Origin: Patescibacteria group bacterium | GTDB taxonomy: Bacteria; Patescibacteriota; JACPGU01 | NCBI GenBank assembly: GCA_028718745.1 | Contig: JAQULF010000004.1 | Span: 1-63,675, forward strand | Reading direction: 5' to 3' | DNA: 63,675 nt | Part shown: one piece after another, positions 8,807 to 50,774 of the stretch | Layout: each line of letters opens with the position of its first letter | Position numbering within the stretch: position 1 is the first letter of the stretch | Notes under the pieces: generated by a model | What the model saw: only the letters and a program-made list of their open reading frames with translations | What the model was told of the DNA's origin: nothing | The model's database searches: none | Position numbers and translations under genes: made by a program

Positions 8807-9751
8807 GTGAAAAAAAACCTAAAGAAAGTAGTGGTAATTGCTGTACACGATAAAACGATTCACGCTGACGAAGTGTTCGCGGTAGCAATCCTGAAAATGT
8901 TGCTTAACATACTATACAAAGACGATCCGAAGAAAATCCGGATCGTGCGCACGCGTGACAAGAAGCTACTCGCCGAAGCAGATTTCCGCATTGATGTTGG
9001 AATGGAATACGATGGCTCAAACAACTGGGATCACCATCAGTTCGATACGGATAAGGGCGAAGGAGTTCGGGAGAATGGCATCCCATTTTCGTCGGCCGGA
9101 CTCCTGTGGCACATATATGGACCGCAAGTCTGTGGCGATGCAGATGTCGCGGAAATCGTCGAGAAAAAGCTGATATGGTCCATCGACATACAGGACCACA
9201 ACAAAGGCATCCCATCATTTCCGCACTACAAAAAAGCCCAGCCATTCACAGTTTCGAGCCTTATCGCGATGTTCAACCCGGTATGGAACGATGGCGGCGC
9301 AGACCCAGATAGAGACTTCGAGCAAGCGGTGCTCGTCGCGGAAACGATTCTCAAAAGAACGATCGCCTATGCCGAAGCGGTCGTCGCAGCAGATTCGGCC
9401 GTTTACATGGCCAGCCTGGAAGCAGATCGCAAGCATAAGCTCTATGTGGTGCTTAAAGACAATGTGCCATGGAGAGAAATCATTCATCGTTATGTCCCAA
9501 AAAGCATGCTCTATGTGATCTGCCGAGTCCCAGGCAAAAAGGATGAGCGCTGGGTCGCATATTGCATCGAAGACAAGGGGAAACATCGCAAGAGCTTCCC
9601 GGCAAAATGGGCCAATCGCGAAGGAGAAGCCCTGGCAAAAGTAACCGGAGTGGTCGACGCTTTATTCTGTCACGCCGGTCTCTTTACCTGCAGTGCGACA
9701 ACGCTTGAAGGTGCTATCGCGCTCGTGGAGCTCGCCATCGCGGCCGAGTGA
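8807..9751 (+). CDS. MYG1/UPF0160-family metal-dependent hydrolase (GC-rich gene)
   Basis: GTG start; HDKTIHADEVFAVAILK, VRTRD, DVGMEYDGSNNWDHHQF; 52% GC in hand-counted 9301-9360. Confidence 0.75.
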   Translation: MKKNLKKVVVIAVHDKTIHADEVFAVAILKMLLNILYKDDPKKIRIVRTRDKKLLAEADFRIDVGMEYDGSNNWDHHQFDTDKGEGVRENGIPFSSAGLLWHIYGPQVCGDADVAEIVEKKLIWSIDIQDHNKGIPSFPHYKKAQPFTVSSLIAMFNPVWNDGGADPDRDFEQAVLVAETILKRTIAYAEAVVAADSAVYMASLEADRKHKLYVVLKDNVPWREIIHRYVPKSMLYVICRVPGKKDERWVAYCIEDKGKHRKSFPAKWANREGEALAKVTGVVDALFCHAGLFTCSATTLEGAIALVELAIAAE

Positions 9752-9789
9752 ACCCGATCGAATCACCAATGAAAAATGAAACAACAAAC

Positions 9790-9816
9790 CCGGGGCCTCA
9801 AAACCCCGGTTTTTTT
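9790..9816 (+). terminator. Rho-independent terminator
   Basis: CCGGGG-cctcaaaa-CCCCGG followed by T7. Confidence 0.75.
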
Positions 9817-9843
9817 ATTTTTTAAAAATGATAAAATGTTTTT

Positions 9844-10380
9844 ATGTTAATTGTTTTCACCGGAAACGGCAAAGGGAAAACTTCTGCGGCGCTGGGAACG
9901 GCGTTACGCTCTTTGGGTTGGAATAGAAAAGTGGCTATTATTCAATTTATAAAAGGTAACAAAGCAACGGGCGAGTGGCAATTCGGGAAATTCGGGACTA
10001 ATTCGGGACAATTCGTGGTAAAACAGTTTTTTGATGACAAACAATATTCAATTTCTGAAAAAAGTATTTTAGAAAATCCGGAATACAAAAAAAGCTGTAA
10101 GCAAGCTTGGAATTTTGCCAAAGAAACAATTTTAAGTAAAAAGTACGATCTCATCATTTTAGACGAAATCAACAACGCAATTCACCTTAAGCTTTTAGAC
10201 GAGAATGAGACCCTGCATTTTGTAGAGACACACGGCCGTGTGTCTGCATTTGATATAATTATGACCGGCCGCAATGCTTCGCAAAAGCTAATCGATATCG
10301 CTGATATGGTTACCGAAATGAAAGAAATAAAGCATCCCTTTCAAAAAGGAGTAAAGGCGAAAGAGGGGATTGATTATTAA
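9844..10380 (+). CDS. cobA: ATP:cob(I)alamin (corrinoid) adenosyltransferase, CobA/BtuR type
   Basis: FTGNGKGKTSAALGTALRSLG...IQFIKG, ILDEINNA; matches the cofactor need of nrdJ. Confidence 0.8.
   Translation: MLIVFTGNGKGKTSAALGTALRSLGWNRKVAIIQFIKGNKATGEWQFGKFGTNSGQFVVKQFFDDKQYSISEKSILENPEYKKSCKQAWNFAKETILSKKYDLIILDEINNAIHLKLLDENETLHFVETHGRVSAFDIIMTGRNASQKLIDIADMVTEMKEIKHPFQKGVKAKEGIDY
9979..10018 (+). repeat. In-frame AATTCGGGA word array inside cobA
   Basis: caATTCGGGAaATTCGGGActaATTCGGGAcaATTCGtgg encodes QFGKFGTNSGQFV; same word as intergenic palindromes 17811-17913 and 41961-42044. Confidence 0.8.
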
Positions 10381-10385
10381 AAAAC

Positions 10386-10411
10386 AAGATGCCCGTTTTA
10401 AGGAGCATCTT
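10386..10411. terminator. Bidirectional hairpin between convergent genes
   Basis: AAGATGC-12 nt-GCATCTT flanked by A-run and T-rich tract. Confidence 0.45.
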
Positions 10412-10442
10412 TGTGTGTCGTCGATCGGGAAATCGTGAAGGG

Positions 10443-10853
10443 CTATGACTTAGTCCTAAACAGACTAACCCTTACAGGCCGCTTCACTTTTTCGGGTTGT
10501 CGAAGATAGACATTGGTCGGTGAAAATTGTCTCACGGATTCTCTGGCCCGTTTTGCTCTCGAATTCTCCCTTGCCCAAATAGCCCTGATGCGAGTTATCT
10601 GCTCCTCCGATAGTTTCGGTTCGAACTCATTCGTCATCATCTTCGAGAGTCCGCCACTTTTGATAGTAGCGATGTGTTTAGCCAAAATCTCCCACTCGCT
10701 TTCCGAATCTACATATTCAATCAGGCTTCTTGCAAGATTCAGAATTTTGACTCTCATGGCATCGGTCTTAACACATGCATTGCGGTACTTTGTCCATTCT
10801 TCAGTTAGGGCCGCGGATGTTTCGGCAAAAACAGTTGCCCTGTCCTTTTCCAT
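10443..10853 (-). CDS. Hypothetical protein (GC-richer islet)
   Basis: 136-aa ORF; GAGGAG 7 nt upstream of the ATG; protein-like composition, unlike the overlapping + strand ORF. Confidence 0.45.
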   Translation of the reverse strand: MEKDRATVFAETSAALTEEWTKYRNACVKTDAMRVKILNLARSLIEYVDSESEWEILAKHIATIKSGGLSKMMTNEFEPKLSEEQITRIRAIWARENSRAKRARESVRQFSPTNVYLRQPEKVKRPVRVSLFRTKS

Positions 10854-10946
10854 GGAATTACTCCTCTGTGTGGATTAAAAAACCAAGTTGTAATATAATA
10901 ATAGCACCATTATGCGATTTTTGTCAATAGAAACTAACATAATTTT

Positions 10947-11180
10947 ATGAAGATAAGTGTGCATCTTACGCCAAACGCCAAAAAATCCGAGATTCTCGGT
11001 GAACAAGACGACCTATTCGGTGGTAAGGTTTTGCGCGTCAAGGTCGCCGCACCTCCGATTGAGGGTAAAGCGAACAAAGAGCTGATAAACATTTTGAGCG
11101 AACATTTTGATGTTCCTAAAAGCAAAATCTCAATTCTTTCCGGCGAAAAATCTAGAAATAAAATCGTAGAGATAAAATAA
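10947..11180 (+). CDS. DUF167/YggU-family protein
   Basis: 77 aa; V.PNAKKSEI...LRVKVAAPPIEGKANKELI..LS..F.V.KS.I.I.SG..SR.K.VEI pattern. Confidence 0.8.
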   Translation: MKISVHLTPNAKKSEILGEQDDLFGGKVLRVKVAAPPIEGKANKELINILSEHFDVPKSKISILSGEKSRNKIVEIK

Positions 11181-11241
11181 AAGAACCCCTGCGGATTCTT
11201 TCAAAAAAAATGAAACTGGTTCGCTAGTTGTAAAAACTAGC

Positions 11242-11508
11242 TTAGAGGGTTGGAAACTTCAAGGGTTCTGCGGTTTTGATCCTTGAAGCCATTTCATCTG
11301 CAAAACTCCTCTCTTCGATGGCTTTTTTGACGCGATTGAACTCATCAAGAGTTTTAATACAAATGAGGGCTGTGCTTAGAACAATCCTTTCAGCAATTCT
11401 TTTTTGTGTTTTATCCACTACCATTGCCTGATCAACCCAATTTAATACTTCCAAAATCCTGTCCACATTGCCAGATGCCTTGCGCAAACAATTTACTAAT
11501 TCTCCCAT
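11242..11508 (-). CDS. Hypothetical protein
   Basis: 88-aa ORF; GGAGG 6 nt upstream of the ATG. Confidence 0.4.
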   Translation of the reverse strand: MGELVNCLRKASGNVDRILEVLNWVDQAMVVDKTQKRIAERIVLSTALICIKTLDEFNRVKKAIEERSFADEMASRIKTAEPLKFPTL

Positions 11509-11630
11509 GAAATGCCTCCGCAGAAGTTGGATTGTGGTTTTGGATTAACGACTTTCTATTCTACACCAAAACTCAATAAAATGCAATTGAAAAAACAGGG
11601 AAAGTGTTATATTGTAATATTGTTGTATTT

Positions 11631-11660
11631 TACTTACTACCTACTACATACTACTTACTA
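11631..11660 (-). repeat. GTAG word array, inverted copy, directly upstream of the ileS start
   Basis: Reverse complement TAGTAAGTAGTATGTAGTAGGTAGTAAGTA matches 3684-3713 at 29/30. Confidence 0.8.
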
Positions 11661-11668
11661 CCACCCCC

Positions 11669-14600
11669 ATGCCCTTCAAACCCGTCAATCCAAAAATCAG
11701 TTTTCCCGAACTTGAAAAAGACATATTAGGCTTTTGGGAAAAGGAAAAAATATTTGAGAAATCCTTGAATAAAGAAAGCCCCAAGGGTTCGTTTGTATTT
11801 TACGAAGGACCTCCAACGGCGAATGGGAAACCGGGCTTGCACCATGTTCTTGCTCGCGCTTTCAAAGATGTTTTACCTCGCTATAAAACAATGCGGGGTT
11901 TTACCGTCCCTCGCAAAGCCGGTTGGGATACGCATGGATTACCGGTAGAAATTGAGGTTGAAAAAAAGCTGGGCATTTCCGGCAAACAAGATATTGAAAA
12001 AATCAAAGCAACTCCCGAAGAAAGCATTATCGAATTTAATAAACTCTGCAAAGAAAGTGTTTTCGCTTATAAAAAGGAATGGGAGGAAATGACAAAGCGC
12101 ATGGGTTTTTGGCTGGATATGGATCATCCCTATATTACTTATGAAAATAATTACATCGAATCGGTTTGGTGGGTCGTATCTCAAGCATTTAAAAAAGGTT
12201 TATTTTTCAAAGGCCACAAAATCGTCCCATATTGCCCTCGTTGCGGGACAGCTCTTTCTTCGCACGAATTAGCCCAAGGGTACAAGGAAGTTGAGGATAA
12301 GTCAATTTATATAAAATTTGAACTTGAAGATGAGCCGGGTACTTTTTTTCTTGTCTGGACAACCACACCATGGACGCTTCCTGGAAATATAGCGTTAGCG
12401 GTAAACAAAGATATCGAGTACATTAAGCTTACTTATACAAAATGGGAGCATGGCGGACCCGAATGGGAAAATAGGGATGTTGCAAAAGGTGAAGCCACTA
12501 TAATTGCTTCTAGACAATTTTTCGAGCAACATAAATCTGATAAAAATCTTCATGACAAATATAATATGGGAGATTATAAAACCATAAAAGGTTCGGAATT
12601 GCTTGGAAAAAAATATAAACAACTTTATCCCTTTATTATCCCAGAAAAAAAAGCTTTTTATGTTATTTCCGGCGACTTCGTTAGTGATTCTGATGGCACA
12701 GGCATCGTTCATATCGCTCCGGCCTATGGCGAAGAAGATTATGTTGTTGGAAAAGAAAATGATCTTCCGGTTTTAATGACTTTGGACAAAGAAGGCAAGA
12801 TGCTTCCCGAGATTACATCTTGGGCTGGCCTTGGGGCAAAAGAAAGCGACCCATTGATCATTGAAGATCTGAAAAAAAGAGATCTGCTTTTTGATACAGA
12901 AATGTATAAACATGACTATCCTTTTTGCTGGCGCTGCGACACGGCCTTGCTTTATTATGCCAAGGATTCTTGGTTCATTGAGATGACGAAGCTCAAAGAC
13001 GAATTGGTAAAAAATAATGAAAATATCAATTGGGTTCCGGACAATATCAAACATGGGCGTTTTGGCGAATGGCTCGAGGGTGTCAAAGATTGGGCGATCT
13101 CTAGGGATAGATATTGGGGAACGCCACTTCCGGTTTGGCAGTGCGAAAAGTGCAGAGAACTAAAATGCATTTCCTCAATTGAAGAGCTAAAAAATTCATC
13201 GGACTTTGATTCGACCTATCCGTCCGATTTGTCCTTAGATCTACACAGACCTTATATAGATAAGATAACCTTTGCTTGTGATTGCGGAGGAGTGATGACT
13301 CGCGTTCCAGAGGTTATGGATGTATGGCTTGATAGTGGCACAATGCCTTATTCACAATTGCATTATCCTTTTGACCCCAGCAGTATATCCTCGCAAAGCT
13401 CGGATAACTACGGGGCAGGAAACAAAGAGATGCCTTTGGCGTTACCAAAATACTTTCCCGCAGACTTCATTTCTGAAGCCGTGGACCAAACCCGCGGTTG
13501 GTTTTATACGCTTCATGCGATTTCAACATTTCTTGGCATGGGAAATTGTTTTAAAAATGTCATTTGTCTCGGTCATATTCTTGATAGCAAAGGACAGAAG
13601 ATGAGTAAATCTAAAGGCAACATGATGGATCCGATGGAAGTTGCCAATGTTCATGGTTTTGACGCGATCCGCTGGTATATGTACACCAATAACCAGCCCG
13701 GCGAACCAAAATTGGTTTCCGATGAAGCGATTAAAGACCAAGTCCGCAGATTCCTACTTATTTTGTGGAATACTTATAGTTTTTTTGTAACATACGCGAA
13801 CATAAAAGATCTCAAAACTCAAATGTCAAATGTCAAAACTACAACTCAAAACTCAAATCTTTTTGATGCTTGGTTGATTTCTAGAAAGAACAAACTAATT
13901 AAAGAAGTTACTAATCACTTAGAGAAGTATGATATTTTTAGTGCCACAAGACGCATAGAAGAATTTGTTGTTGAACTTTCTACTTGGTATCTCCGCCGAA
14001 ATAAGAAGCGAGATGATGCGGAATTTTTACAAGTTTTACATGAAACATTGGTTGATATTGTTAAACTTTTAGCGCCTTTTACGCCTTTTGTTGCTGAAGA
14101 AATTTATAAAAATTTAACAGGCAAAGAATCTGTTCACTTAGATTCATGGCCTGAATTTGACGAGAGCCTGATAAATACTGCTCTAGAACACGAAATGAAA
14201 TTGGCGCGAGAAATTATCGAAGCCGGACACGCTATCAGAAAAGAAAAAGTAATTAAAGTCCGCCAACCTCTATCCGCTATCGAAGTGCTAAATTTCAAAC
14301 CAAAATTTGATTTGAATGATATTATATTAGACGAGCTTAATGTCAAAAAAATTGATTTTGTAGATACATTTTCCGAAGGCGGCGATTGGTTCAAAAAAGA
14401 AAAGATGCTCGGCGACTTATCTGTCCCATTAGTCTCATTGAATCTCTCCATCACCCCCGATCTCAAATCCGAAGGCGATATGCGCGAAATCGTGCGCCTC
14501 ATTCAAGACGCTCGCAAAGAAGCAAGATACGCCTTTTCCGATGAGGTAAAATGCTATTTCCAAACCGATTCACAAGAGCTGAAAGATGTCATTGCTAAAT

Positions 14601-14737: not shown

Positions 14738-14766
14738 TTGATATTGCCATTAAATTCTGATAAGAT
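14738..14766 (+). promoter_or_regulatory. Sigma-70-type promoter of a GC-rich islet
   Basis: TTGATA, 17-nt spacer, TAAGAT. Confidence 0.45.
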
Positions 14767-14839
14767 ATAAGCAACATAAGGTCGGCATCAGACTTTACTA
14801 CCTTAAAAATAAGCCCATTGGGCGAAAGGAGGCCACATC

Positions 14840-15565
14840 ATGTGGCCTTACATCATTGGTTTTCTGCTTCTTGTCGGCGGAATCTTCGGTTTGCGCAAAT
14901 ATCGCGAATACAAAAAAATGAAAAAGGCGATTGAGGATGAGAGGCAGGAAGTTATCAAAGAAAGAAAGATCGTGCTGGAAAACCTGGAAAACCCATCAAG
15001 GGAGGTAGTTTTATCTTCCTCTTCCAATCTGTATTCCCTTATCGGAGTTTATGATGATCCTTGCACTCCCGAATGGCACTGCTATCCCTCGTGGGTAGAC
15101 GAACTCGAAAGACGCCCATTCCGGCTCGAGTGGATTGGCACCACCCAGGAAAAACTCGTGGAATTAATAGATCGCTGGACCCGCATAAAAAACATATTCA
15201 TGAGCCTGGAAATAATGCGAAGACCGGAGGAAAGCGACGAGTGGGAAGTAGCCGAGAAATTGTTCAGGCGCGAATTGGAGATCCTCGGTTTCCCGCTCAC
15301 CTTCTTCGAAACCAGCGAAGAAGAAATTGCCAAGCTTGGCAAGAAATACAACGAATGTGAGGCCAAGAGAAATCTTGCATCCATTCGAAGATATGAGAAA
15401 AAAATTCTCGAACTCTTCGATAAAATGAGCGATGCACTGGGAAAAAGTGGCCTTGAAGAACAAGACATTGGAGTTAACCAGGTTGATATACACCTCATCA
15501 GTGCATTATCTGCAATCCAGAAGTTTCGGAAAACATACGATGAGATCAATTTGATGTTTCCTTAG
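14840..15565 (+). CDS. Hypothetical N-terminally membrane-anchored protein (GC-rich islet)
   Basis: 241 aa; AGGAGG 7 nt upstream; N-terminal TM helix WPYIIGFLLLVGGIFGL. Confidence 0.5.
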   Translation: MWPYIIGFLLLVGGIFGLRKYREYKKMKKAIEDERQEVIKERKIVLENLENPSREVVLSSSSNLYSLIGVYDDPCTPEWHCYPSWVDELERRPFRLEWIGTTQEKLVELIDRWTRIKNIFMSLEIMRRPEESDEWEVAEKLFRRELEILGFPLTFFETSEEEIAKLGKKYNECEAKRNLASIRRYEKKILELFDKMSDALGKSGLEEQDIGVNQVDIHLISALSAIQKFRKTYDEINLMFP

Positions 15566-15594
15566 GACAAAACCACCACGGAGGAGGTGATTGA

Positions 15595-15774
15595 ATGGAA
15601 CAAATGGTTTTTTGCCTTATGTTGCTCAAGGCATGGTTCTGTAATAATGCCATGGGCAATCCGGCCTTCTGGTGGATCGCCTTATGTTTGACAGCAATCA
15701 TGATCAGCGAGATCATACCGATCCGCACGAGAAGGCCACACTATTACCGAAGAAATCGGAGAAGGGTTTTTTAA
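15595..15774 (+). CDS. Small (59 aa) membrane protein with basic tail (below ORF-track cutoff)
   Basis: GGAGGAGGTG then ATG; hydrophobic AFWWIALCLTAIMISEII followed by RTRRPHYYRRNRRR. Confidence 0.4.
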   Translation: MEQMVFCLMLLKAWFCNNAMGNPAFWWIALCLTAIMISEIIPIRTRRPHYYRRNRRRVF

Positions 15775-15804
15775 CGCTTTTCTCCTGAACATTATTATAA
15801 TGAG

Positions 15805-15835
15805 AGGCTCGGTCTAAACCCCCGGAGCCTTTTTT
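15805..15835 (+). terminator. Rho-independent terminator of the islet
   Basis: AGGCTCGG...CC(G)GAGCCT followed by TTTTT. Confidence 0.6.
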
Positions 15836-15836
15836 C

Positions 15837-17247: not shown

Positions 17248-17347
17248 GGGTCTACAAATTACGAATTTATTACGAATGTACGAATTTTTTTCCTAATAAT
17301 TTTCTCTTATCTTATTCGTATATTCGTACCTATTCGTAATTCGTAGA
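17248..17347 (+). repeat. ~97-bp TACGAAT palindromic element, copy 1
   Basis: GGGTCTACaAATTACGAAT...ATTCGTAATTCGTAGA; outer 16 nt form near-perfect inverted termini (one mismatch in this copy). Confidence 0.8.
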
Positions 17348-17383
17348 ATATAAAATATTTAGAAAAAATTAAACATTTCAACT

Positions 17384-17810: not shown

Positions 17811-17913
17811 CTCCCTAATTATCCCAAATTAAACCCGAATATCCCGAATTTTCGGAAAAATATTTTGTACTATTAGGGAAAATTAGGGATAAATTAGGGA
17901 ACATTCGGGAAAA
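17811..17913. repeat. Intergenic word palindrome (CCCTAATT / CCCGAAT words)
   Basis: ctccctaattatcccaaattaaacccgaatatcccgaatt ... attagggaaaattagggataaattagggaacattcggga. Confidence 0.75.
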
Positions 17914-17932
17914 ATACTATAAAAATAACTAT

Positions 17933-18671: not shown

Positions 18672-18679
18672 TTTTCTAA

Positions 18680-18800
18680 TTTTAAAATTAAAAATAAAAT
18701 ATCAAAAATAAAAAACACAAAGTAAAAACTTAAAAATATCTTTGTTTTTATATATCTAAGTATTTATTTTTTATCTTTTATTTTTCATTTTTTATATTGT
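18680..18800. repeat. A-run/T-run intergenic palindrome
   Basis: aaaattaaaaataaaatatcaaaaataaaaaacacaaag ... ctttgtttttatatatctaagtatttattttttatcttttattttt. Confidence 0.6.
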
Positions 18801-20463: not shown

Positions 20464-20489
20464 GAAGCCTTGGAGAAGATTAACGAACG

Positions 20490-40654: not shown

Positions 40655-41077
40655 TTAGCCCATTCTTTTTGGGCCCAGAACGGAGCGAGTCAATTCCCTG
40701 CCGGCAATCTCAAGCTCTGCCCATTTTTTGTTCAGCAGGAAATTGAGCCACAAATCGAAGCCATCGTGGCCAGCAAGGGTATTCATGCCCGGGACAAGAG
40801 TGAAACCCAAGCTGAATAGTGGCTTTGAGGTGTCGTGGCGATATTTTTCATCTTCACCCGGCATTATTATTCCTCTTGAAACATCGGTGGCCACCGCAAT
40901 GAGACCGAGTTGTTTGATGGTTTCCGAAGTTTTATCGCATACTTCAATCTGGTTGAAGTCAATGAAATTTAACATCGGCAGGCTCGGCACCATTTGCTTT
41001 AGCATCAGATGGGTCATGAGATTTTCGAGGTGCGCTGTTTTAGATACTGCAGAGCCACAAAAACGCCCGCAGAGCAC
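40655..41077 (-). CDS. Hypothetical protein, possibly the 3' part of a frameshifted gene (GC-rich islet)
   Basis: 140-aa ORF; its frame is open from 41131 and overlaps the upstream same-strand ORF by 64 nt. Confidence 0.4.
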   Translation of the reverse strand: MLCGRFCGSAVSKTAHLENLMTHLMLKQMVPSLPMLNFIDFNQIEVCDKTSETIKQLGLIAVATDVSRGIIMPGEDEKYRHDTSKPLFSLGFTLVPGMNTLAGHDGFDLWLNFLLNKKWAELEIAGRELTRSVLGPKRMG

Positions 41078-41415
41078 ACCTTTGCAAAAAGAGCTGCGGG
41101 GCAGCCAAGTCGCATGCCATTGCAGGAATTCGACTCACCGTAAAAATGAATGTACTTGCCACAACGATAGAGCATGATGCTGGTCGTGTCGATCATTCCT
41201 TTGGGTGATTTGTAGATCAGAGATCCCCAATGTTTCAGATTGAAACTGCGGATGTCTGTGTGCATTTGCTCAAACTGGCCACCGAAAGTGGCCCGCACTT
41301 TCTGAAAATCACCGGTCATTCCTGGCTCGTCGGTCTGGTAAGGCTGTAAGATTACGATTCGCTCTTCTTCCCTGCCGGCTGGTAAATCTGTGTACCTTGT
41401 TTCTCTCTTAGACAT
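41014..41415 (-). CDS. Hypothetical protein, possibly the 5' part of a frameshifted gene (GC-rich islet)
   Basis: Start set at MSKRETRY (AAAGGGG upstream); overlap region contains two T5 runs. Confidence 0.4.
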   Translation of the reverse strand: MSKRETRYTDLPAGREEERIVILQPYQTDEPGMTGDFQKVRATFGGQFEQMHTDIRSFNLKHWGSLIYKSPKGMIDTTSIMLYRCGKYIHFYGESNSCNGMRLGCPAALFAKVCSAGVFVALQYLKQRTSKIS

Positions 41416-41595
41416 AATAAACCCCTTTGCCCATGCAGCCGTCAAGTGACCTGCACCCGGGCATTTTTTATATTTGCCATGCAGCCATTCTCTAAAAATT
41501 CAGAGAATCCGCATCCAGCAGCTTTGTGAAAGAACATTTGGCTTTATAATGAATTGTCAGTTTCACGAAGTATAGGGTTCTAAAAAATAATAGTT

Positions 41596-41955
41596 TTATT
41601 CCTTAATCTTAACTTCTTTATCAAAAAATCTTTTAAAATAAAAATCTCTTAGAACCGCTACTTTCTGAATGATTCTAAACATAAAAACTACCGTAACGCC
41701 GAGATATAAATCCAGGTTAAGTTTATCGCCGAGATAGACAAAAAAAGCTGCGATGAAAACATAAAAAAGCAGGCCGGTTATAAAATTAGCCACATTAAAT
41801 TCCTTCTTTGTTTGAGCGCCAATGGCGCCAATCAAAGAATCCAAGATAGCTAAAATCGCCACCGCTGTATAGCGGGAATATTCTGGAGCTATATTGAATG
41901 GAAGAAAAGCCCCTAAAATAGTTCCTAAAAAAATACCAAGAATTGCGTAAAGCAT
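41596..41955 (-). CDS. Small basic membrane protein, DUF1290/Sbp-like
   Basis: MLYAILGIFLGTILGAF...YSRYTAVAILAILDSLIGA...; the ORF-track N-terminus (41956-41982) is encoded by the repeat. Confidence 0.55.
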   Translation of the reverse strand: MLYAILGIFLGTILGAFLPFNIAPEYSRYTAVAILAILDSLIGAIGAQTKKEFNVANFITGLLFYVFIAAFFVYLGDKLNLDLYLGVTVVFMFRIIQKVAVLRDFYFKRFFDKEVKIKE

Positions 41956-41960
41956 AATTT

Positions 41961-42044
41961 CTCCCGAATTATCCCAAATCATTCCCTAATTTTCCCCAAT
42001 TCCCATTCGGGATATTCGGGTGTAATTCGGGATAATTAGGGATT
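41961..42044. repeat. Intergenic word palindrome (CCCGAATT / CCCTAATT), second family member
   Basis: ctcccgaattatcccaaatcattccctaattttcccc ... attcgggatattcgggtgtaattcgggataattagggat. Confidence 0.75.
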
Positions 42045-42936: not shown

Positions 42937-42970
42937 AATGTTCTAAAATTATTTATAATTGATAGAAGTC

Positions 42971-43053
42971 AATGAATAAATGATTATATGAATAAATGAA
43001 TAAAAAAGTTTAAGCTATTTCTAATCATTTAATCCTTTATTTATTTATTCATT
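42971..43053. repeat. Intergenic word palindrome (AATGAATAAA family), between secD and secF
   Basis: aatgaataaatgattatatgaataaatgaataaaa ... atcatttaatcctttatttatttattcatt. Confidence 0.75.
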
Positions 43054-43062
43054 TTGATCTAT

Positions 43063-44346
43063 TTATTTCCTCACTTTCTTTCCTAAAAATAAGAAAAGTA
43101 GGTTTCGTGTTACTGTTATTGCTGTAAATAAGCTAACCAATATACCAACTGCCAGCGTTAAGGCAAATCCTTTTACTAGGCCTGTGCCAAGGAAAAACAG
43201 GATTGCGCAAGTGATGAGCGAAGAAGCATTTGAGTCGCGAATAGAAGTCCAAGCGCGATTAAATCCGGCCTTAATAGCGGAACTATAAGCTTTCCCGCGC
43301 CGTAATTCCTCTTTCATTCTTTCAAAAATAAGGATATTGGCATCCACAGCCATACCTACCGAAAGGATAAATCCGGCGATACCGGCCAAAGTCATAGTAA
43401 CCGGAATTAATTTGAATAAGGCAATTACAATCAATGCGTAAACCGCTAAAGCGATTGAAGCGATCAAACCGGCAAATCGGTATCGGAAAATCATGAAAAG
43501 CACTACAAATAAAATTCCGATTAATCCGGCAATAAAGCTTTTGTGAACAGAATCTTGTCCCAAAGTCGCGCCGACATTTCTTTGTTCTACCAGATTAATC
43601 GGCACGGGAAGCGCTCCGGCATTAAGTTGCAAAGCTAATTTCTTGGCCGCGTCCATAGTAAATTGTCCGGTAATCACAGCGTTCCCGCCATCAATCGCTT
43701 GATTGACCCGGGGAGCTGAAAGCAATTCTTTATCCAAAAATATAGCCAGAGGCTTGCCTACATTTCTTCCCGTTACTTCAGAAAAAATCTTGGCGCCTTC
43801 ATCATTGAAAGTGATTGAGATCTCCGGCTCATAATTACTTTGACTGACTTGAGCGGTAGCTTTTTTAAATAATGATCCATTAAGTCCCACATCTTGCCAG
43901 TCATCGATTAGAATAGATTTAAGCTGACCATTTTCTAATGATTTTCCCTCTATTCCCTCTCGAAATTCCAGTTGAGCCGTTTGCCCAATCATGGCAATCG
44001 CTTCATCAATGTTTGTAATACCGGGAAGCTCTACGAGAATCTTGTAGTTATTCAAACCTGAAGTGGTTTGAATTACCGGTTCAGAAACTCCAAGCGCGTT
44101 AATTCGGCGATCAAGGACGGTTTGAACTCCTTCCAAAGCGCTATCGCGATCCTTTGCGGCAACTTTGCTCATATCAGCTTCATAAACCAAATGAGCTCCG
44201 CCAAGAAGATCGAGACCTTGTTGGATCTTTAATTCTTTATAATAGCTCCCTATTTTCAAATTGGGACCCTTTGGCCAGTCAACAATCCCTGCTAAAACAG
44301 AGATAACGATGATGACAAAAAACATTATCCAGATTTTCTTTCGCAT
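43063..44346 (-). CDS. secD: Protein translocase subunit SecD
   Basis: GLDLLGGAHLVYEAD, GVSEPVIQ, C-terminal 6-TM domain. Confidence 0.93.
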   Translation of the reverse strand: MRKKIWIMFFVIIVISVLAGIVDWPKGPNLKIGSYYKELKIQQGLDLLGGAHLVYEADMSKVAAKDRDSALEGVQTVLDRRINALGVSEPVIQTTSGLNNYKILVELPGITNIDEAIAMIGQTAQLEFREGIEGKSLENGQLKSILIDDWQDVGLNGSLFKKATAQVSQSNYEPEISITFNDEGAKIFSEVTGRNVGKPLAIFLDKELLSAPRVNQAIDGGNAVITGQFTMDAAKKLALQLNAGALPVPINLVEQRNVGATLGQDSVHKSFIAGLIGILFVVLFMIFRYRFAGLIASIALAVYALIVIALFKLIPVTMTLAGIAGFILSVGMAVDANILIFERMKEELRRGKAYSSAIKAGFNRAWTSIRDSNASSLITCAILFFLGTGLVKGFALTLAVGILVSLFTAITVTRNLLFLFLGKKVRK

Positions 44347-44530: not shown

Positions 44531-44730
44531 TTAAGATATTATTTTTTAAGCTTTGACATAACCATCTATTATTTATCAAAAAACCCTTGACAGTATCTAC
44601 AAAATATGCTATATTTAATGTGTAATCTAACAGGTATTTAATCCTCTCCCAGTTTATGATAAAATTGAGAGAGTGGACTTTGACAATAAAATCACGGATA
44701 CCAATCCGTATGTCGAGGAGAAAAGATGTT

Positions 44731-44907
44731 ATGAAAAAACATCAAGTGGTGGTATCGGCAGTAATCTTAGGCATCATAATGGGATTGGCAGGAAGATTAA
44801 CCCACAAGGATATAGCGTGGGCGGCCGAGATGGCAACACTTTCAACCGTTCTTATCGGCGTATGGAGAGTTGTTGATCTCCTGAAGCAAATCAAAGAGAA
44901 ACTGTAA
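44731..44907 (+). CDS. Small (58 aa) two-helix membrane protein (GC-rich islet)
   Basis: MKKHQVVVSAVILGIIMGLAG...LSTVLIGVWRVV; GAGGAG upstream. Confidence 0.4.
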   Translation: MKKHQVVVSAVILGIIMGLAGRLTHKDIAWAAEMATLSTVLIGVWRVVDLLKQIKEKL

Positions 44908-44961
44908 AACCCCGCCAATCACGCCAAGCGTGAGCGGGAATTGCCAAAGGAGGCAAAAATC

Positions 44962-45849
44962 ATGAAACGGATACTCGTAATCGCGATCCTCGCGATCGTG
45001 GCAACATTCGTCAGCTTCATCGGCATCGCGCAGGCAGAGACAATGTATCTGAAAGAAGTGGCCTGCACGACATTCATCAAAGAGATGAAAACGAATGTCT
45101 GCTTCGCCTATCTGGCGAATCAGCCGAATTCCGCCGGCATTTACGACTCGGCACTCGAGTTCAATGAAGGCGGATGCGCCGATCCCCAAAGAACATCGGC
45201 CATGAGTAAGTCGTTCGTCGCCAATGGTGAAAAAGTACAAAGACTCGCTCTGTATGTGCCGAGACTGGATAAGTGCTTTTCCCAGACATTCGACGGCACA
45301 CCGATTCAAACGGTGAACGACAATGTCCGACTGGGAAATCAGTACGCCGCAGACACAAACGCAACTGCTCATGAAATTCAGGACAGCGCGACTCTCGTCG
45401 CGGCTTGCAAGAGCCGAGTCAACGCGAAATACCGGAAAACATTTAACTCCGGTACGACCTACGACTTTGCTCACGCGATCGCCGCCGCAACCTGCAAAAG
45501 CAGCAGCTGGTGCCCATATGTCGTTGCCGGCAGCGAGTTCAAAGCCGACATGCAGGACAGGAAATGGGCCATGGCAATTGTGGATTGCGAGAGTAATCCC
45601 GGTCCCATGACAGGCAACGAGCAAATGTACGCCGGCGCTCCGACAACACCGCCACCTTACTACTCGGCGCCCGCCGCGCCCATCTACTACCCGCCGGCAC
45701 CGAACTACGGCAGCGGATATGGCTACGAATATCCGCCGTACCCGCAAACACAGCGCGCGCCCGGCTCACGCCATATCTTCATGAACAACTGCATGCAGAG
45801 ATTCAACGACAGTGACTACTGTCATTACGCATACGAATACAACAGGTAG
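44962..45849 (+). CDS. Secreted hypothetical protein with Pro/Tyr-rich C-terminal region (GC-rich islet)
   Basis: AAGGAGG 8 nt upstream of the ATG; signal peptide ILVIAILAIVATFVSFIGIAQA; 50% GC in hand-counted 45001-45060. Confidence 0.55.
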   Translation: MKRILVIAILAIVATFVSFIGIAQAETMYLKEVACTTFIKEMKTNVCFAYLANQPNSAGIYDSALEFNEGGCADPQRTSAMSKSFVANGEKVQRLALYVPRLDKCFSQTFDGTPIQTVNDNVRLGNQYAADTNATAHEIQDSATLVAACKSRVNAKYRKTFNSGTTYDFAHAIAAATCKSSSWCPYVVAGSEFKADMQDRKWAMAIVDCESNPGPMTGNEQMYAGAPTTPPPYYSAPAAPIYYPPAPNYGSGYGYEYPPYPQTQRAPGSRHIFMNNCMQRFNDSDYCHYAYEYNR

Positions 45850-45882
45850 AACCAGACCTGCTGTGCAACAACGCAACAACTG

Positions 45883-45911
45883 GGGCGGACTCGAAAGAGC
45901 CGCCCTATTTT
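45883..45911 (+). terminator. GC-rich terminator of the islet
   Basis: GGGCGG(A)CTC-GAAA-GAGCCGCCC followed by TATTTTC. Confidence 0.65.
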
Positions 45912-45922
45912 CATGTCTTGCA

Positions 45923-45975: not shown

Positions 45976-46682
45976 AGGAGCATTTTCAAATCACTTGGTA
46001 ATTTTGATTTAAAATCCAACATCTCGCCGGTTTTAGGATGTTTAAATGATAGTTCAGATGCATGTAGGAACTGACGACGAAGTCCTATTTTTTTTGAGAA
46101 AATTTCCGAATCGCGGCTTTTATAAACCGGATCCCCCACCACCGGAAATCCAATCGCAAAAAAATGCGCGCGAATTTGGTGAGTGCGGCCGGTCTCGATG
46201 ATTACATCAATATAAGACAAATCGGGCATATGGGACGAATGTAAATACTTTTTAACTTCGTAATGCGTGATAGCTTCTCTCCCAAGGGCGTTATGTATAA
46301 CGCCCCTACAACTCACAAAACGGGTCCGATTTTTTGGGTCTCTTTTCAAGGCGATATTGATCGTCCCTTTTTTTGGTTCCAGTTTACCAAAAACCAAGGC
46401 TTCATAAATCTTTTTAACTTGGTGAGAGGCGAACTGGTTTTGAAGGTTAACCAGCGCCTTTTCATTTTTTGCCACAACCATCAGCCCCGAGGTATCGCGA
46501 TCCAAACGATGAACAATCCCTCCGCGGGGCAGATTGATTTTGTATTCATTAATTAAAATTTTTTCCAATGTAGAGACGCTACTCCTCGCGTCTTTTTTAT
46601 CAGATTCAACGACTAAACCTGAAGGCTTGTTTATTACCAACAAATCATCGTCTTCAAATATGATCTCGAAATATTTAGACAT
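45969..46682 (-). CDS. RluA/RluD-family pseudouridine synthase (no S4 domain)
   Basis: LLVINKPSGLVV, HRLDRDTSGLMVVAKN, GRTHQIRAH; start set at MSKYFEI because upstream codons are repeat-encoded. Confidence 0.88.
   Translation of the reverse strand: MSKYFEIIFEDDDLLVINKPSGLVVESDKKDARSSVSTLEKILINEYKINLPRGGIVHRLDRDTSGLMVVAKNEKALVNLQNQFASHQVKKIYEALVFGKLEPKKGTINIALKRDPKNRTRFVSCRGVIHNALGREAITHYEVKKYLHSSHMPDLSYIDVIIETGRTHQIRAHFFAIGFPVVGDPVYKSRDSEIFSKKIGLRRQFLHASELSFKHPKTGEMLDFKSKLPSDLKMLLE
46286..46309 (-). repeat. 24-nt REP-like GTAG + palindrome in frame in the rluD-like gene (different frame)
   Basis: Gene strand GTAG-GGGCGTTAT-AC-ATAACGCCC, read as (C)RGVIHNAL. Confidence 0.8.
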
Positions 46683-48950: not shown

Positions 48951-49005
48951 AAAAAAAAGAGGGGTACCTGTTGCAAGAGCTTTTGACTCTAAAGTACCCT
49001 CTCTC
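48951..49005 (-). terminator. Terminator of a GC-rich islet gene (minus strand)
   Basis: Minus strand GAGAGGGTAC...GTACCCCTC (imperfect) followed by T8. Confidence 0.5.
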
Positions 49006-49038
49006 ATTGATTCATGTTAGTGGGACAACTTTCACGGG

Positions 49039-49425
49039 TTACCGCCATTTACTGTAGATTGAAACAACCTTGCGGCCTTCCTTCTTCGACCCCCAGTAGT
49101 TGATGCCTCCGCCTTTGATGACTGTCAGCCGAGGTGAATCCTTGTGGTAGCGAAAATAGTATCCGCCGGCTGAAATCATTGCGCGAAGCGCGAAAACAAC
49201 CGCAAGTACAGATACGACGCCCGCGGCAAGAAAACACCACGCGAACATTCCCTGCCAGCCGACCATGCGCAGGCAGAACAGCACGAAGAACACATCGAAG
49301 ACGGCGAGACAAAAAAGCCGCTTCTGATCCGGTGAAGAAGTCCGCCAGAGGAATGTTAATTCAAACTGAATGACATCTTTCCGCTGACGCATTGCGTTTA
49401 CCAACTTACTTAACCGATTTTTCAA
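49039..49425 (-). CDS. Hypothetical membrane protein (GC-rich islet)
   Basis: TTG start after AAAGGGGA; two TM helices (LFCLAVFDVFFVLFCL, FAWCFLAAGVVSVLAVVFAL). Confidence 0.45.
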   Translation of the reverse strand: MKNRLSKLVNAMRQRKDVIQFELTFLWRTSSPDQKRLFCLAVFDVFFVLFCLRMVGWQGMFAWCFLAAGVVSVLAVVFALRAMISAGGYYFRYHKDSPRLTVIKGGGINYWGSKKEGRKVVSIYSKWR

Positions 49426-49488
49426 AGGCCGAAGTCCCCTTTCCTTGTTTTGTTTCTTGGCTTATTATACTATTATTTTACAAAATTG

Positions 49489-50091
49489 TCAAAAGCTTTT
49501 TCGTCCTTCCAGCGCTTTGGATAAGGTTACATCGTCCGCGTATTCTATGTCTCCTCCAAAAGGAATTCCGCGAGCAATGCGAGTAACTGAAATCCCCAGC
49601 GGTGAAATTAGTCTTTGAATGTACATAGCCGTCGCTTCACCTTCGGTAGTCGGATTGGTCGCTAAAATTATTTCCTTAACTTCATTGCCAGCCCCTAGAC
49701 GAGCAAGTAATTCTTTTATTTTTAAATCATCCGGACCGATGCCATCAACCGGAGAAACAGCTCCATGCAAAACATGATAAAGGCCTTTGTAAAAACCGGA
49801 GCGTTCTAATGCTAAAATATCCAGCGGTTCCTCAACCACACAAATTGTAGATTGATCACGACTGGCATCATCGCAAACCAAACATTTCTCCCCTTCTGAA
49901 ATGTTTTGGCATTCCGGACAAATGGAAATCTCTTGTTTCAAACCGGTTATTGCCGCGCCAATATCTTCACTGAATTTTTTATCCTTTCGGAGCAAATAGA
50001 AGGCCAGTCTCTGGGCGCTTTTTGGCCCAATGCCGGGAAGCGATGCAAATGCATCGACAGCTTTTTGAATTGATGAGGGAAGTTTGTTCAT
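49489..50091 (-). CDS. recR: Recombination protein RecR
   Basis: LPGIGPKSAQRLAFYLL, C4 zinc finger CPECQ...CLVC, Toprim domain. Confidence 0.95.
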   Translation of the reverse strand: MNKLPSSIQKAVDAFASLPGIGPKSAQRLAFYLLRKDKKFSEDIGAAITGLKQEISICPECQNISEGEKCLVCDDASRDQSTICVVEEPLDILALERSGFYKGLYHVLHGAVSPVDGIGPDDLKIKELLARLGAGNEVKEIILATNPTTEGEATAMYIQRLISPLGISVTRIARGIPFGGDIEYADDVTLSKALEGRKSF

Positions 50092-50110
50092 AATTTTTAC
50101 ATTATAGAAT

Positions 50111-50157
50111 AAAAAAAGGCAAATTAAAAGGGCATCTCGAGTGTTTCAAGACGCCCT
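50111..50157 (-). terminator. Terminator of a GC-rich islet gene (minus strand)
   Basis: Minus strand AGGGCGTCT-11 nt-AGATGCCCT, then TTTTAATTTGCCTTTTTTT. Confidence 0.55.
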
Positions 50158-50159
50158 GT

Positions 50160-50774
50160 TCATTTTTTCCTGCGGAGAATGCGTTCAGTGCGGTAGACAC
50201 CGGAAGGAAGTTTTTCCTCTTCTTCGGGATCAGGATTACCCGGGTCTTCGTCTTCACCCGGATCTTCATCTGTGAACATAAGCCCGGTTTCAATGCCCTC
50301 ACTATCTTCCGACAACTGTCGCATGATGTCTGCCTTGCCATGGATAGGCTCCACCCAAACCCTGATGTTGCCCATAGGTTCGAGACCTTTCGCATAGGTT
50401 GGATGGCGGACATTCTCCTGGATCCAATGCCGAAAGGATGGGGTACGGCTTTGGACAAAAATCTCTTTGCCATAAAGAGAACATGCCGGCCCTACCATCA
50501 TCCTTAAAAAAGAAACGAGTCCCACTAGAACTTCTTCAGGATGCCCACCGGCCTCATCAAGAGCTTGAATGTCGATTCTGACAATCCCTTCCTGACTGAA
50601 TCCTTTGTTATGAGCATTCAGTGCCGCGCCAAGAGCAGCGAGGTACTTGCTCGTAGATTCCAGACTTGGAACAACAGAGGTCCCCGACCTCATTTGGAGA
50701 TAAAGAATATTGACTTCTTTTCTCTGAACATTCCAGTAAGTCTTGTATGACTCCGTGAAATGCAAGGTCGACAC
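50160..50774 (-). CDS. Hypothetical protein with acidic C-terminal region (GC-rich islet)
   Basis: 204-aa ORF; AAGGAGG abuts the GTG at 50774, so a TTG at 50765 (8-nt spacing) may be the true start. Confidence 0.45.
   Translation of the reverse strand: MSTLHFTESYKTYWNVQRKEVNILYLQMRSGTSVVPSLESTSKYLAALGAALNAHNKGFSQEGIVRIDIQALDEAGGHPEEVLVGLVSFLRMMVGPACSLYGKEIFVQSRTPSFRHWIQENVRHPTYAKGLEPMGNIRVWVEPIHGKADIMRQLSEDSEGIETGLMFTDEDPGEDEDPGNPDPEEEEKLPSGVYRTERILRRKK

Follow-up and report, generated by a model that had tools for sequence, protein, structure and literature searches.

GC-richer, Shine-Dalgarno-led gene cassettes in fixed slots of a Moranbacteria chromosome segment are probably resident accessory units

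Phage morons (Juhala, Hendrix) are autonomous promoter-gene-terminator units that lie between conserved genes of lambdoid phages, and the O-antigen and capsule loci of enterobacteria and pneumococci are positionally fixed, hypervariable and persistently atypical in their GC content. Horizontal gene transfer (HGT) and genomic islands are on record for the Patescibacteria (PMC12455944), and atypical genes are usually AT-richer than the genome that carries them (PMC6028130). With respect to translation initiation, the genes of Bacteroidia that lack a Shine-Dalgarno (SD) sequence have a start pattern with A at positions -3, -6 and -12/-13 (PMC6847099), and in the GeneMarkS-2 group C genomes the SD is used by operon-internal genes (PMC6028130). 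In this study, we analyzed a contig of a Patescibacteria group bacterium (JAQULF010000004.1 of assembly GCA_028718745.1; its 63,675 nucleotides [nt] are referred to as the window), in which GC-richer, SD-led islets stand between AT-rich core genes. We consider it probable, with moderate confidence, that these islets are resident, autonomous, SD-dependent accessory cassettes in a Moranbacteria chromosome and neither recent imports nor artefacts.

The window has a GC content of 40.3% and is a deposited contig of a metagenome-assembled genome (MAG) from a landfill metagenome run. A preliminary description, made from the sequence alone, had listed 12 richer segments, which total 10,464 nt or 25% of the ~42-kb span from 8807 to 50774, and these segments served as our islet set. 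The five 60-nt GC values that had been counted by hand were exact (0.517, 0.50, 0.433, 0.267 and 0.333), and 10 of the 12 segments were clearly GC-rich (44-52%); the claim did not hold for 11242-11520 (40.5%) and 34500-34882 (40.7%), which are near the window mean in GC and yet SD-led. Taken together, the 12 segments had a GC content of 47.1% compared to 38.9% for the rest of the span, and random segment sets of equal lengths gave 40.3 ± 1.1% with a maximum of 44.4%. The GC enrichment is regional and goes beyond the codon level, with non-coding DNA at 45.4% GC within the islets and 29.9% outside. At the gene level, GC at third codon positions (GC3) was 0.52 ± 0.09 in islet genes (n=13) and 0.375 ± 0.044 in core genes (n=40; p = 2e-5). 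Tetranucleotide frequencies correlated at r = 0.70 between core and islets, compared to 0.96 ± 0.03 between core subsets and the remaining core, and leave-one-out codon-usage likelihood assigned 38/38 core genes and 12/14 islet genes to their own class. A compositional break, as the preliminary description had anticipated, was therefore present in all three quantitative scans (GC, tetranucleotides and codon usage). The shift from core to islet genes at 4-fold sites was asymmetric, with T falling from 0.32 to 0.18, C rising from 0.245 to 0.31 and G from 0.19 to 0.26 while A was unchanged (0.25 versus 0.24). Stop codons differed as well (TGA in 7/18 islet open reading frames [ORFs] versus 2/40 core genes, p = 0.0025), as did the folding energy of the start region, computed over -30 to +30 (-10.4 versus -3.4 kcal/mol, p = 1e-6). 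High expression was considered as the source of the C-ending codons and rejected, given that ribosomal protein genes have low GC3. Collectively, two gene classes exist in the window, separated by GC, GC3, SD, codons, tetranucleotides, stops and start folding.

The SD sequence was scored as GGAG or GAGG at positions -18 to -5 of the start codon and was found for 14 of the 18 islet genes but only 2 of the 38 core genes of the window (Fisher p = 5e-8). The chance rate of such a motif in DNA of islet composition is 0.066 per scoring window, which gives a binomial p = 7e-14. All 10 islet starts named in the preliminary description are start codons behind GGAGG-type motifs at a spacing of 5-11 nt. 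Its account of the core genes as mostly SD-less was likewise borne out, together with the SD-bearing exceptions it gave, namely, rplU (AGGAGG ahead of the ATG at 15909), rplL and the dCMP deaminase (AAGGAG ahead of its second ATG), and so was its remark that MYG1 has a weak SD. Core genes of the sister genomes described below (n=84) had a GC3 of 0.33 and a strong SD in 7%. Across 97 core start regions from the window and the sister loci, the sequence was 50-70% A and ~7% G, with A peaks of 0.57 at -3, 0.72 at -6 and 0.67 at -11. TATAAT-like hexamers ended 5-10 nt before the start in 22/97 core genes compared to 11 expected, and a clear -10 box close to the start was seen for the sigma-like gene at 40482, recR and cysS. 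The best reading of these patterns is that the core genes initiate independently of an SD and in a partly leaderless-like manner. Promoter-like sites were found ~30-100 nt upstream of the islet starts, and GC hairpin terminators follow most islets, in agreement with the preliminary description; these signals, as well as the leaders and leaderless starts, are consensus matches and constitute sequence evidence.

The organism is a bacterium of the candidate phyla radiation (CPR; Moranbacteria) without a close species representative, given that the closest IleS proteins among the GTDB species representatives belong to Moranbacteria/Patescibacteria MAGs and are 50-57% identical. Species representatives at that distance (IleS ≤57%) are too remote for tests of islet presence or absence. 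Sister loci, which carry L numbers here, were gathered via an rplA-anchored scan of metagenome contigs and subsequent look-ups of MYG1, of RecR and of relatives of the Cys-rich protein. The resulting set comprises at least 7 related Moranbacteria genomes from other metagenomes, with core proteins 60-90% identical to those of the window and gene order kept. The comparison of islet occupancy across sister genomes, which had been proposed as a check, showed that the dichotomy of SD and composition recurs in at least 7 Moranbacteria loci, and this recurrence supports one of the two alternatives originally offered, a dedicated accessory gene class.

Four of the larger islet genes could be followed between species. 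The genes for MYG1, a secreted PHP-like protein and a secreted Cys-rich protein have the same slot and orientation in sister species, and a gene for a 201-amino-acid (aa) protein probably does likewise; these positional orthologues are 25-54% identical, compared to 67-90% for the flanking genes. A strong SD is kept in nearly all orthologues of the larger islets (7/7 of the islet-gene orthologues counted have an SD). The PHP-like orthologues lie after rplA in L047 (50% identity), L048 (34%), L050 (32%) and L053 (28%), where RplA is 76-89% identical, and every one of them has an SD. The MYG1 orthologue of L098 lies between a trypsin-like gene and cobO and is 54% identical, with a GC3 of 0.57 and an SD, while IleS is ~78-82% identical; the two loci differ in that thyX-tmk-glyA is inserted between the trypsin-like gene and MYG1 in the window. 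The best MYG1 match outside was 40% identical. An exhaustive HMMER search of 1.84 billion representative proteins, carried out for one orphan, the Cys-rich 295-aa protein (the islet product with the highest GC content), returned only two relatives, both from the same slot of sister genomes. The secD-rluA interval of L099, L100, L103 and L101 also contains a copy of this gene, again on the opposite strand, and in L099 the gene is preceded by a small membrane ORF, as in the window. Identity to the window protein is 28-37% (L099, L100 and L103), with L101 barely alignable, compared to 77-90% for SecD. The identities do not track those of SecD: L099 and L103 share 51% (SecD 80%), whereas the window and L103 share 37% (SecD 90%). 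The 201-aa gene shares its promoter, leader, SD and TTG start with its counterpart in L102, and the proteins barely align (z = 5.1).

The composition of these genes has persisted across this divergence. The GC3 of the Cys-rich gene is 0.52-0.74 across the window and sisters versus ~0.30 for the core, and three diverged orthologues have values of 0.66, 0.67 and 0.74 beside core genes at 0.23-0.38. At 4-fold sites, the Cys-rich orthologues have T at 0.09-0.15 (core 0.31-0.35) and C at 0.37-0.46, and the C fraction of their NNY codons is 0.65-0.80 versus 0.23-0.36 in the core. High GC3 and the switch from U to C at the third base are kept in both MYG1 and the Cys-rich family. The identity of 4-fold sites between the window and the sisters is 0.39-0.46, where 0.26-0.28 is expected at saturation, which would correspond to ~1.3-1.7 substitutions per 4-fold site. 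With these sites near saturation, a foreign composition that was not under selection should have largely decayed. Simple decay of the Cys-rich GC3 would require an ancestral GC3 > 1, which is impossible, suggesting that the composition of this family is maintained. The larger cassettes thus appear to be long-standing, fast-evolving residents of fixed slots in sister species, and the small cassettes may have been acquired recently from a donor.

We propose the following organization for the cassettes. Each would carry a sigma-70-type promoter ~30-100 nt upstream, a leader that is GC-richer and structured and contains a consensus SD (GGAGG, 5-11 nt from the start), a body of 1-3 ORFs with a preference for C-ending codons and frequent TGA stops, and a GC hairpin with a T-tract as terminator, the whole sitting in a fixed intergenic slot between core operons. 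The core genes would initiate without an SD via A-rich, unstructured start regions, often with a -10 box 5-10 nt before the ATG. We hypothesize that the SD is needed in the cassettes since the A-rich, SD-independent route would be closed to start regions that are GC-rich and folded. The high-GC state would be actively maintained by selection or a local bias and would not represent foreign DNA that has yet to ameliorate. About half of the products are predicted to be small membrane or secreted proteins, and two are putative metal phosphoesterases (MYG1 and the secreted PHP-like protein); given these hydrophobic segments and the two phosphoesterases, the cassettes may serve envelope and secreted functions of an episymbiont, possibly lineage-specific functions in the envelope or in host interaction that are under diversifying pressure. 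The small cassettes would turn over or diverge past recognition.

The cassettes and their products in the window are as follows.
8743-9816, plus strand: cassette 1, MYG1/UPF0160 phosphoesterase, GTG 8807 to TGA 9751; promoter-like site 8743-8771, weak SD GGGG, bidirectional GC hairpin terminator 9790-9809 followed by a T-run.
10386-10927, minus strand: cassette 2, orphan of 136 aa, SD GAGGAG, ATG 10853, stop 10443; promoter TTGACA-18-TATTAT 10927-10898, terminator 10411-10386.
11178-11520, minus strand: cassette 3, orphan of 88 aa, SD GGAGG 11519-11515, ATG 11508, stop 11242, terminator 11203-11178.
14738-15836, plus strand: cassette 4, promoter-like site 14738-14766, terminator ~15806-15836.
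14840-15565, plus strand: cassette 4 orphan of 241 aa, ATG start, SD AGGAGG, N-terminal hydrophobic segment.
15595-15774, plus strand: cassette 4 putative single-pass membrane peptide of 59 aa with a basic tail, ATG start, SD GGAGGAGGTG.
18822-20463, plus strand: cassette 5a, putative secreted PHP-like metal phosphoesterase of 541 aa, SD AGGAG, GTG 18838.
20530-21455, plus strand: cassette 5b, promoter TTGACA-18-TAGAAT 20530-20559, strong 13-bp terminator 21426-21455.
From ATG 20628, plus strand: cassette 5b orphan of 179 aa, SD GGAGGTGG.
From ATG 21171, plus strand: cassette 5b orphan of 79 aa, SD GGGGG, TGA stop.
25640-26290, plus strand: cassette 6, a three-gene unit after tgt in which all three ORFs end in TGA.
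From ATG 25653, plus strand: cassette 6 putative transmembrane peptide of 42 aa, SD GGGAGG.
From ATG 25785, plus strand: cassette 6 protein of 115 aa, SD GAGGTG.
From ATG 26129 (overlapping ATGA), plus strand: cassette 6 putative transmembrane peptide of 53 aa with a basic tail, SD GGAGG.
34521-34817, plus strand: cassette 7, basic orphan of 92 aa, ATG 34539, SD AGAGGTG, 41% GC.
35435-35890, minus strand: cassette 8, promoter TTGACT-17-TAAAAT 35890-35862, SD AAGGAGGTG, ATG 35812, terminator 35459-35439.
40565-41445, minus strand: cassette 9, SD AAGGGG, ATG 41415, ORFs 41415-41014 and 41077-40655.
44587-45912, plus strand: cassette 10, promoter TTGACA-17-TATATT 44587-44615, terminator ~45882-45912.
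From ATG 44731, plus strand: cassette 10 putative transmembrane protein of 58 aa.
From ATG 44962, plus strand: cassette 10 putative secreted Cys-rich protein of 295 aa, SD AAGGAGG, GC 0.54, GC3 0.66.
48953-49492, minus strand: cassette 11, promoter TTGACA-17-TATAAT 49492-49464 (12/12 match), terminator ~49003-48953.
Within cassette 11, minus strand: putative protein with two transmembrane segments, 128 aa (TTG 49425) or 117 aa (ATG ~49392), GC 0.50, GC3 0.60.
50129-50856, minus strand: cassette 12, promoter TTGACA-17-TAAGAT 50856-50828, SD AAGGAGGTG 50780-50772, terminator 50157-50129.
From TTG 50765 to a TGA stop at 50160, minus strand: cassette 12 protein of 201 aa with an acidic tail.

The islets stand among Pfam-confirmed core genes, which include ftsZ, nrdJ, thyX, tmk, glyA, cobO, ileS, rplU, secE, nusG, rplK, rplA, rplJ, rplL, tgt, a U32 peptidase gene, two VirD4/TraG-like ATPase genes, secDF, cysS, recR, eno and por genes. 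Hydrophobic N-terminal or internal segments were predicted in 9/17 islet products, and no paralogy was found among the islet proteins. The MYG1 gene (GC 0.51, GC3 0.57) matches PF03690 over its full length (E = 4.5e-48, 164.9 bits versus a cut-off of 22.1, profile positions 2-318 of 318). The 541-aa protein of cassette 5a has a Cys-rich C-terminal half and carries the PHP metal-binding motifs HxH, D, H, E, H, H and DxH, with H30, H32, D38, H62, E94, H113, H154, D211 and H213 invariant in 5 orthologues. Its profile matches to the PHP structures 2yxo and 3e0f are weak (E = 0.07-0.1), it had no Pfam match at E = 0.01, and a single-sequence AlphaFold model was unusable (pLDDT 33). Its gene directly follows rplA and splits the rplKA/rplJL cluster. 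The rplK-rplA-rplJ-rplL order is interrupted by ~4.5 kb between rplA and rplJ (18672-23196; L047 10727-15217; also L048 and L053), an insert that holds the PHP-like secreted protein, a small AAA kinase and the dCMP deaminase, and the same split was present in all sisters examined.

The small cassettes behave differently with respect to sequence. None of their products (136, 88, 241+59, 179+79, 42+115+53, 92 and 128 aa, as well as cassettes 8 and 9) showed similarity to its slot-mates in the sister genomes, although these slot-mates are often small SD-led ORFs as well. The 136-aa orphan of cassette 2 had no Pfam, PHROG or PADLOC match and no relative in the sister slots, and the cassette 5b products likewise had no relative there. 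Cassette 3, with 40% GC and an SD, is divergent from the ileS promoter; its DUF167/ileS slot is empty in L047 (75-nt spacer) and holds a minus-strand gene of 95-98 aa in L098 and L053, with the same start position behind GGAGG in the window and L098. Unrelated SD-led ORFs occupy the ileS/rplU slot of cassette 4 in sister genomes, and other small SD-led ORFs occupy that of cassette 6. The cassette 9 slot holds unrelated ORFs of 82-92 aa or is empty (among these ORFs, that of L101 has an SD), and that of cassette 11 is empty in L102 and L103 and contains an unrelated PALP gene in L101. Cassette 10 lies on the strand opposite to the flanking secD and rluA. The cassette 8 ORF (35812-35489) comprises 27 codons, an in-frame TGA at 35731-35729 and 77 further codons in the same frame; its transcript folds beyond shuffled controls (z = -4.7) and had no Rfam match. 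Cassette 8 could be a decaying gene or pseudogene, a gene that is read through its stop codon or a short ORF followed by a structured 3' portion of the RNA. The gene of cassette 9 changes frame, apparently in the 41014-41077 ORF overlap at a T-run, and is followed by two terminator hairpins at ~40565-40650. Variable slots do not all hold GC-rich, SD-led genes, given that the insert between porA and porB (53168-53710; 180 aa in the window) is AT-rich and SD-less; elsewhere, this position has a response-regulator-like gene of 166 aa (L102 578-1078), an unrelated gene of 242 aa (L103 6309-7037) or no gene (L101).

The initiation signals of both classes gave rise to several further observations. 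The SD lies in or beside the loop of a short GC-clamped hairpin at 14824-14836, 20611-20627, 25637-25649, 44946-44958 and 11513-11521 (examples are GGCgaaaggagGCC, CAACCcggaggtGGTTG, GTCCcgggaGGAC and GCCaaaggagGC), which could be chance in GC-rich leaders or a means of presenting or regulating the SD. The 128-aa gene of cassette 11 starts elsewhere in the deposited annotation (117-aa product; ~49392 versus 49425), and for cassette 12 a 204-aa form from GTG 50774 is not on record, the SD-supported start being TTG 50765. Automatic start calling struggles with two classes of start signals. In L104 and L105, two more distant CPR loci with MYG1, nearly all genes are SD-less, and several have an extended -10 (TGTGnTAnAAT) that ends 7-9 nt before the ATG. 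Initiation that is leaderless or independent of an SD may be common throughout this part of the radiation.

The contig is of metagenome origin, and we considered that the islets could be assembly or binning chimeras, GC-rich non-coding RNA or spurious ORFs, particularly since two of them are without a clean ORF (35435-35890, with the in-frame TGA and strong fold, and 40655-41415, with the frameshift). We regard this as highly improbable. Logan contigs of the same landfill run, which were assembled independently, join the cassettes to both flanks with 0-1 differences and a word depth of 7-11x. One contig of 6,024 nt covers glyA, MYG1, cobO, the 136-aa gene, DUF167, the 88-aa gene and ileS, and others link ileS, the 241-aa gene and rplU; tgt, cassette 6 and the U32 gene; VirD4, the sigma-like gene, cassette 9 and DUF1290 (36698-42020, 10x depth); secD, cassette 10 and rluA (3062 nt); and cysS, cassette 11, recR, cassette 12 and eno. 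Every junction that we examined is spanned by this independent assembly without a break in depth, which excludes chimerism of the islets as far as the Logan contigs allow; 21060-21448 in cassette 5b was outside the Logan contigs examined, and an alternative junction exists at 21039. The same slots are also occupied in independent metagenomes. Structured RNA genes were ruled out as the source of the GC peaks, since ARAGORN found no tRNA in the 63.7 kb and Rfam gave nothing at gathering thresholds and chance-level matches at E < 1. The islet ORFs have the properties of coding sequence: their GC3 is higher than their GC2, orthologues share conserved catalytic and cysteine residues, and in a ~96%-identical strain from a second run (X3), 9/16 differences fall at third codon positions. 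The cassette of that strain diverges by 3-4% compared to 1.9% for secF, which is about double.

We also considered that the islets were acquired recently and repeatedly from GC-richer, SD-using donors (host, phage or plasmid) and have not yet drifted to the style of the recipient, which was the other alternative in the preliminary description. Their deviation in GC, tetranucleotides, codons and TGA use, the predominance of orphans among their products, the variable contents of the small-cassette slots among sisters, including the empty DUF167/ileS slot of L047, and the islands reported for Patescibacteria (PMC12455944) are all consistent with such transfer. We nevertheless consider it unlikely, and unsupported as recent transfer, given that the four larger cassettes (the 201-aa one probably) are positional orthologues in sisters whose synonymous sites are near saturation, with the SD conserved in nearly all of them and with a GC3 of 0.66-0.74 in three diverged Cys-rich orthologues that decay would not explain. 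The search for donor taxa yielded only the two sister-slot relatives of the Cys-rich protein, the one orphan searched exhaustively, and no significant phage or plasmid matches: tblastn of the concatenated orphans against INPHARED phages and PLSDB plasmids gave nothing significant, nor did three IMG/VR scans, PHROGs and PADLOC, where the sole match was ZorB (E = 0.007). No tRNA and no flanking or terminal repeat was found at any islet (the repeats found belong to other features), and no scanned islet protein matched a mobility family, with the only transposase-like gene (33002) located outside the islets. An older foreign origin is a separate matter. In other CPR bacteria, MYG1 is AT-rich and SD-less and lies in a VTT-MYG1-Obg operon, so the version of this clade may be a xenologue; an ancient foreign origin of this MYG1 is possible, and its import long ago from a very GC-rich donor is arithmetically feasible. 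An ancient foreign origin is likewise possible for the small cassettes, because their slot-mates in the sisters are unrelated in sequence.

The slots could alternatively be recombination hot spots at which old, diverged alleles are exchanged between lineages by homologous recombination via conserved flanks, much as at O-antigen or capsule loci, with GC-biased gene conversion raising both coding and non-coding GC. Such exchange would fit Cys-rich identities that, in the few taxa available, do not follow the flanking SecD, fixed slots with variable contents, cassette non-coding DNA that is GC-rich too (45% versus 30%) and the excess divergence of the X3 cassette over secF. We find it quite improbable, however, given that the shift at 4-fold sites is strand-asymmetric (T from 0.32 to 0.18, A from 0.25 to 0.24), unlike symmetric gene conversion, and that GC enrichment is weak in the PHP-like orthologues of the sisters; moreover, the gene-conversion GC effects reported in bacteria are far below a GC3 difference of 0.3-0.4. 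A more far-reaching possibility, to which we give little weight, is that the clade runs two initiation regimes, with an A-rich, SD-independent and partly leaderless core and an accessory set of envelope or secreted host-interaction genes, transcribed separately and distinct in composition, that uses classical SD initiation. The SD and the GC-rich style, with C in place of U at third positions, would then be selected, and the cell could switch the whole set through a ribosome sub-population or through the availability of the anti-SD; a precedent would be found in Flavobacteria, where SD recognition depends on bS21.

Several points weigh against resident, autonomous cassettes as the explanation. 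The PHP-like orthologues have a GC3 of only 0.34-0.42 in the sisters versus 0.55 in the window, and two cassettes in the window are not GC-rich. Other hypervariable genes, namely, the one for a 1965-aa protein and the por-operon insert, are AT-rich and without an SD; we rejected fast evolution as the sole cause of high GC on these grounds, and it does not by itself explain the class. The AT-rich, SD-less MYG1 of other CPR bacteria fits an old foreign origin, the small cassettes may have been replaced by transfer or may have diverged extremely, and the exhaustive search was made for one orphan only. No RNA run with this organism was found, leaving the promoters, leaders, terminators and leaderless starts as consensus matches, and no rpsU or 16S rRNA gene, the latter with the 3' end that contains the anti-SD, was present within the window or any fetched locus. 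The SD is a more constant marker of the class than GC.

Other repeats and features of the window were noted alongside the cassettes. The thyX gene is flanked by 112-nt direct repeats that are 98% identical (5151-5262 and 6689-6800), with hairpin ends resembling the inverted repeats (32826-32963 and 33553-33695) around an IS200-like Y1 transposase gene (33002-33541); perfect direct repeats of 44 nt accompany the transposase gene as well. L098 and L047 lack the thyX-tmk-glyA block at this position, and thyX may have been moved by palindromic elements of the IS200/IS605 type. Core spacers contain long AT-rich palindromes of tandem 7-8-nt words (TACGAAT.., ATTAGGGA.., GTAGTAAG.. and AAATGAAT..) at 17249-17355, 27907-28007, 33736-33786 and 54846-54949, at 17812-17915 together with 41957-42042, at 3683-3721 with 11631-11661 and at 39221-39303 with 42957-43067, and several families recur across loci. 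These palindromes may terminate the core genes or belong to a REP-like element, and they look unlike the cassette terminators, which are short GC hairpins. Three unrelated protein-coding genes contain a GC-rich hairpin motif (GGGCGCGAT.AATCGCGCCCCTACA; 3986-4020, 36394-36428 and 46284-46318), and cobO has tandem AATTCGGGA words and a perfect 20-nt palindrome (9976-10017 and ~10222-10241); the in-gene hairpins look like short palindromic elements inserted in frame. A 50-nt stretch of the U32 peptidase gene (26880-26929) is repeated at 94% identity in the intergenic 35125-35174, and both copies have a Logan word depth of up to ~40x versus ~9x, which may point to a short multi-copy element in the metagenome. 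Within ileS, word depth spikes to ~770x at 13713-14069, with many loose ends at 13805-13841, and this short stretch apparently also occurs in numerous other organisms or elements of the sample. In several Moranbacteria and Yanofskybacteria relatives (L024 3939-4519, L026 11662-12224, L033 11449-12062 and L040 11410-12014), but not in the window, a gap of ~560-610 nt breaks up the match to ileS, which might reflect inserted DNA, an intein or a gene split in two.

The CPR/Patescibacteria constitute a large, mostly uncultured fraction of the bacteria in which gene expression has hardly been studied. If the pattern is genome-wide, an SD-led, GC-richer start would mark fast-evolving, mostly envelope or secreted episymbiont genes from sequence alone. 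Methods that detect HGT by composition, as well as arguments from amelioration, would take these loci for recent imports, and start prediction with a single model would get one of the two classes wrong; for two genes of the window, the annotated start already deviates from the one that the SD supports. Our findings raise the question of whether a single bacterium can divide its proteome between SD-independent and SD-dependent initiation. They also pose a puzzle, given that a high-GC, U3-poor state in fast-evolving genes of an AT-rich, reduced genome fits poorly with models of mutation bias or gene conversion.

We found no description of this dichotomy of SD and composition in CPR bacteria in the literature, and the finding draws together features already known from moron-like cassettes, from atypical genes and from genomes that initiate translation in two ways. 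Like phage morons, the cassettes appear to be bracketed by a promoter and an intrinsic terminator of their own, separate genes that are direct neighbors in relatives and deviate in composition. Unlike morons, they are located in a bacterial chromosome among ileS, rpl, secDF, cysS, recR and eno without a prophage, have no PHROG or phage relatives, and, for the larger ones, stay in place across species while diverging. They share deviant GC, codons and tetranucleotides, orphan products and, among the small ones, an apparently patchy distribution with HGT islets and atypical genes (Lawrence and Ochman; GeneMarkS-2, PMC6028130). However, they are GC-richer, their deviation lasts in orthologues at near-saturated synonymous divergence, and no mobility genes, tRNA, attachment repeats or donors were found for them. 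In Bacteroidia with SD-independent initiation (PMC6847099, PMC7797042, PMC9976891), most genes are SD-less with A-rich, unstructured starts beside a strong-SD minority, and the A pattern there resembles our core profile (A at -3, -6 and -11). Their 16S rRNA keeps the anti-SD, which is sequestered by bS21, bS18 and bS6. That phylum is another one, and its SD-led genes are rare, with the autoregulated rpsU as an example, whereas the SD-led minority described here takes up about a quarter of the 42-kb span with 18 ORFs and is made up largely of accessory genes, joined by rplL and rplU. The core start profile also resembles that of GeneMarkS-2 groups B and C, and the leaderless or dual-start genomes of group C or X, in which first genes of operons have a Pribnow box ~10 nt before the start, may have a parallel in the -10 boxes found here 5-10 nt before many core starts alongside SD-led genes (PMC6028130). 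Unlike in group C, operon-internal core genes (rplK-rplA, secE-nusG and por) are SD-less as well, and the SD tracks class and composition. Finally, the cassettes are similar to O-antigen and capsule loci in their fixed slots, deeply diverged or non-homologous contents, lasting atypical composition and putative surface-related products, whereas those loci span multiple genes, are AT-richer than the genome and have a known biosynthetic function, and the cassettes are dispersed, GC-richer units of 1-3 genes.

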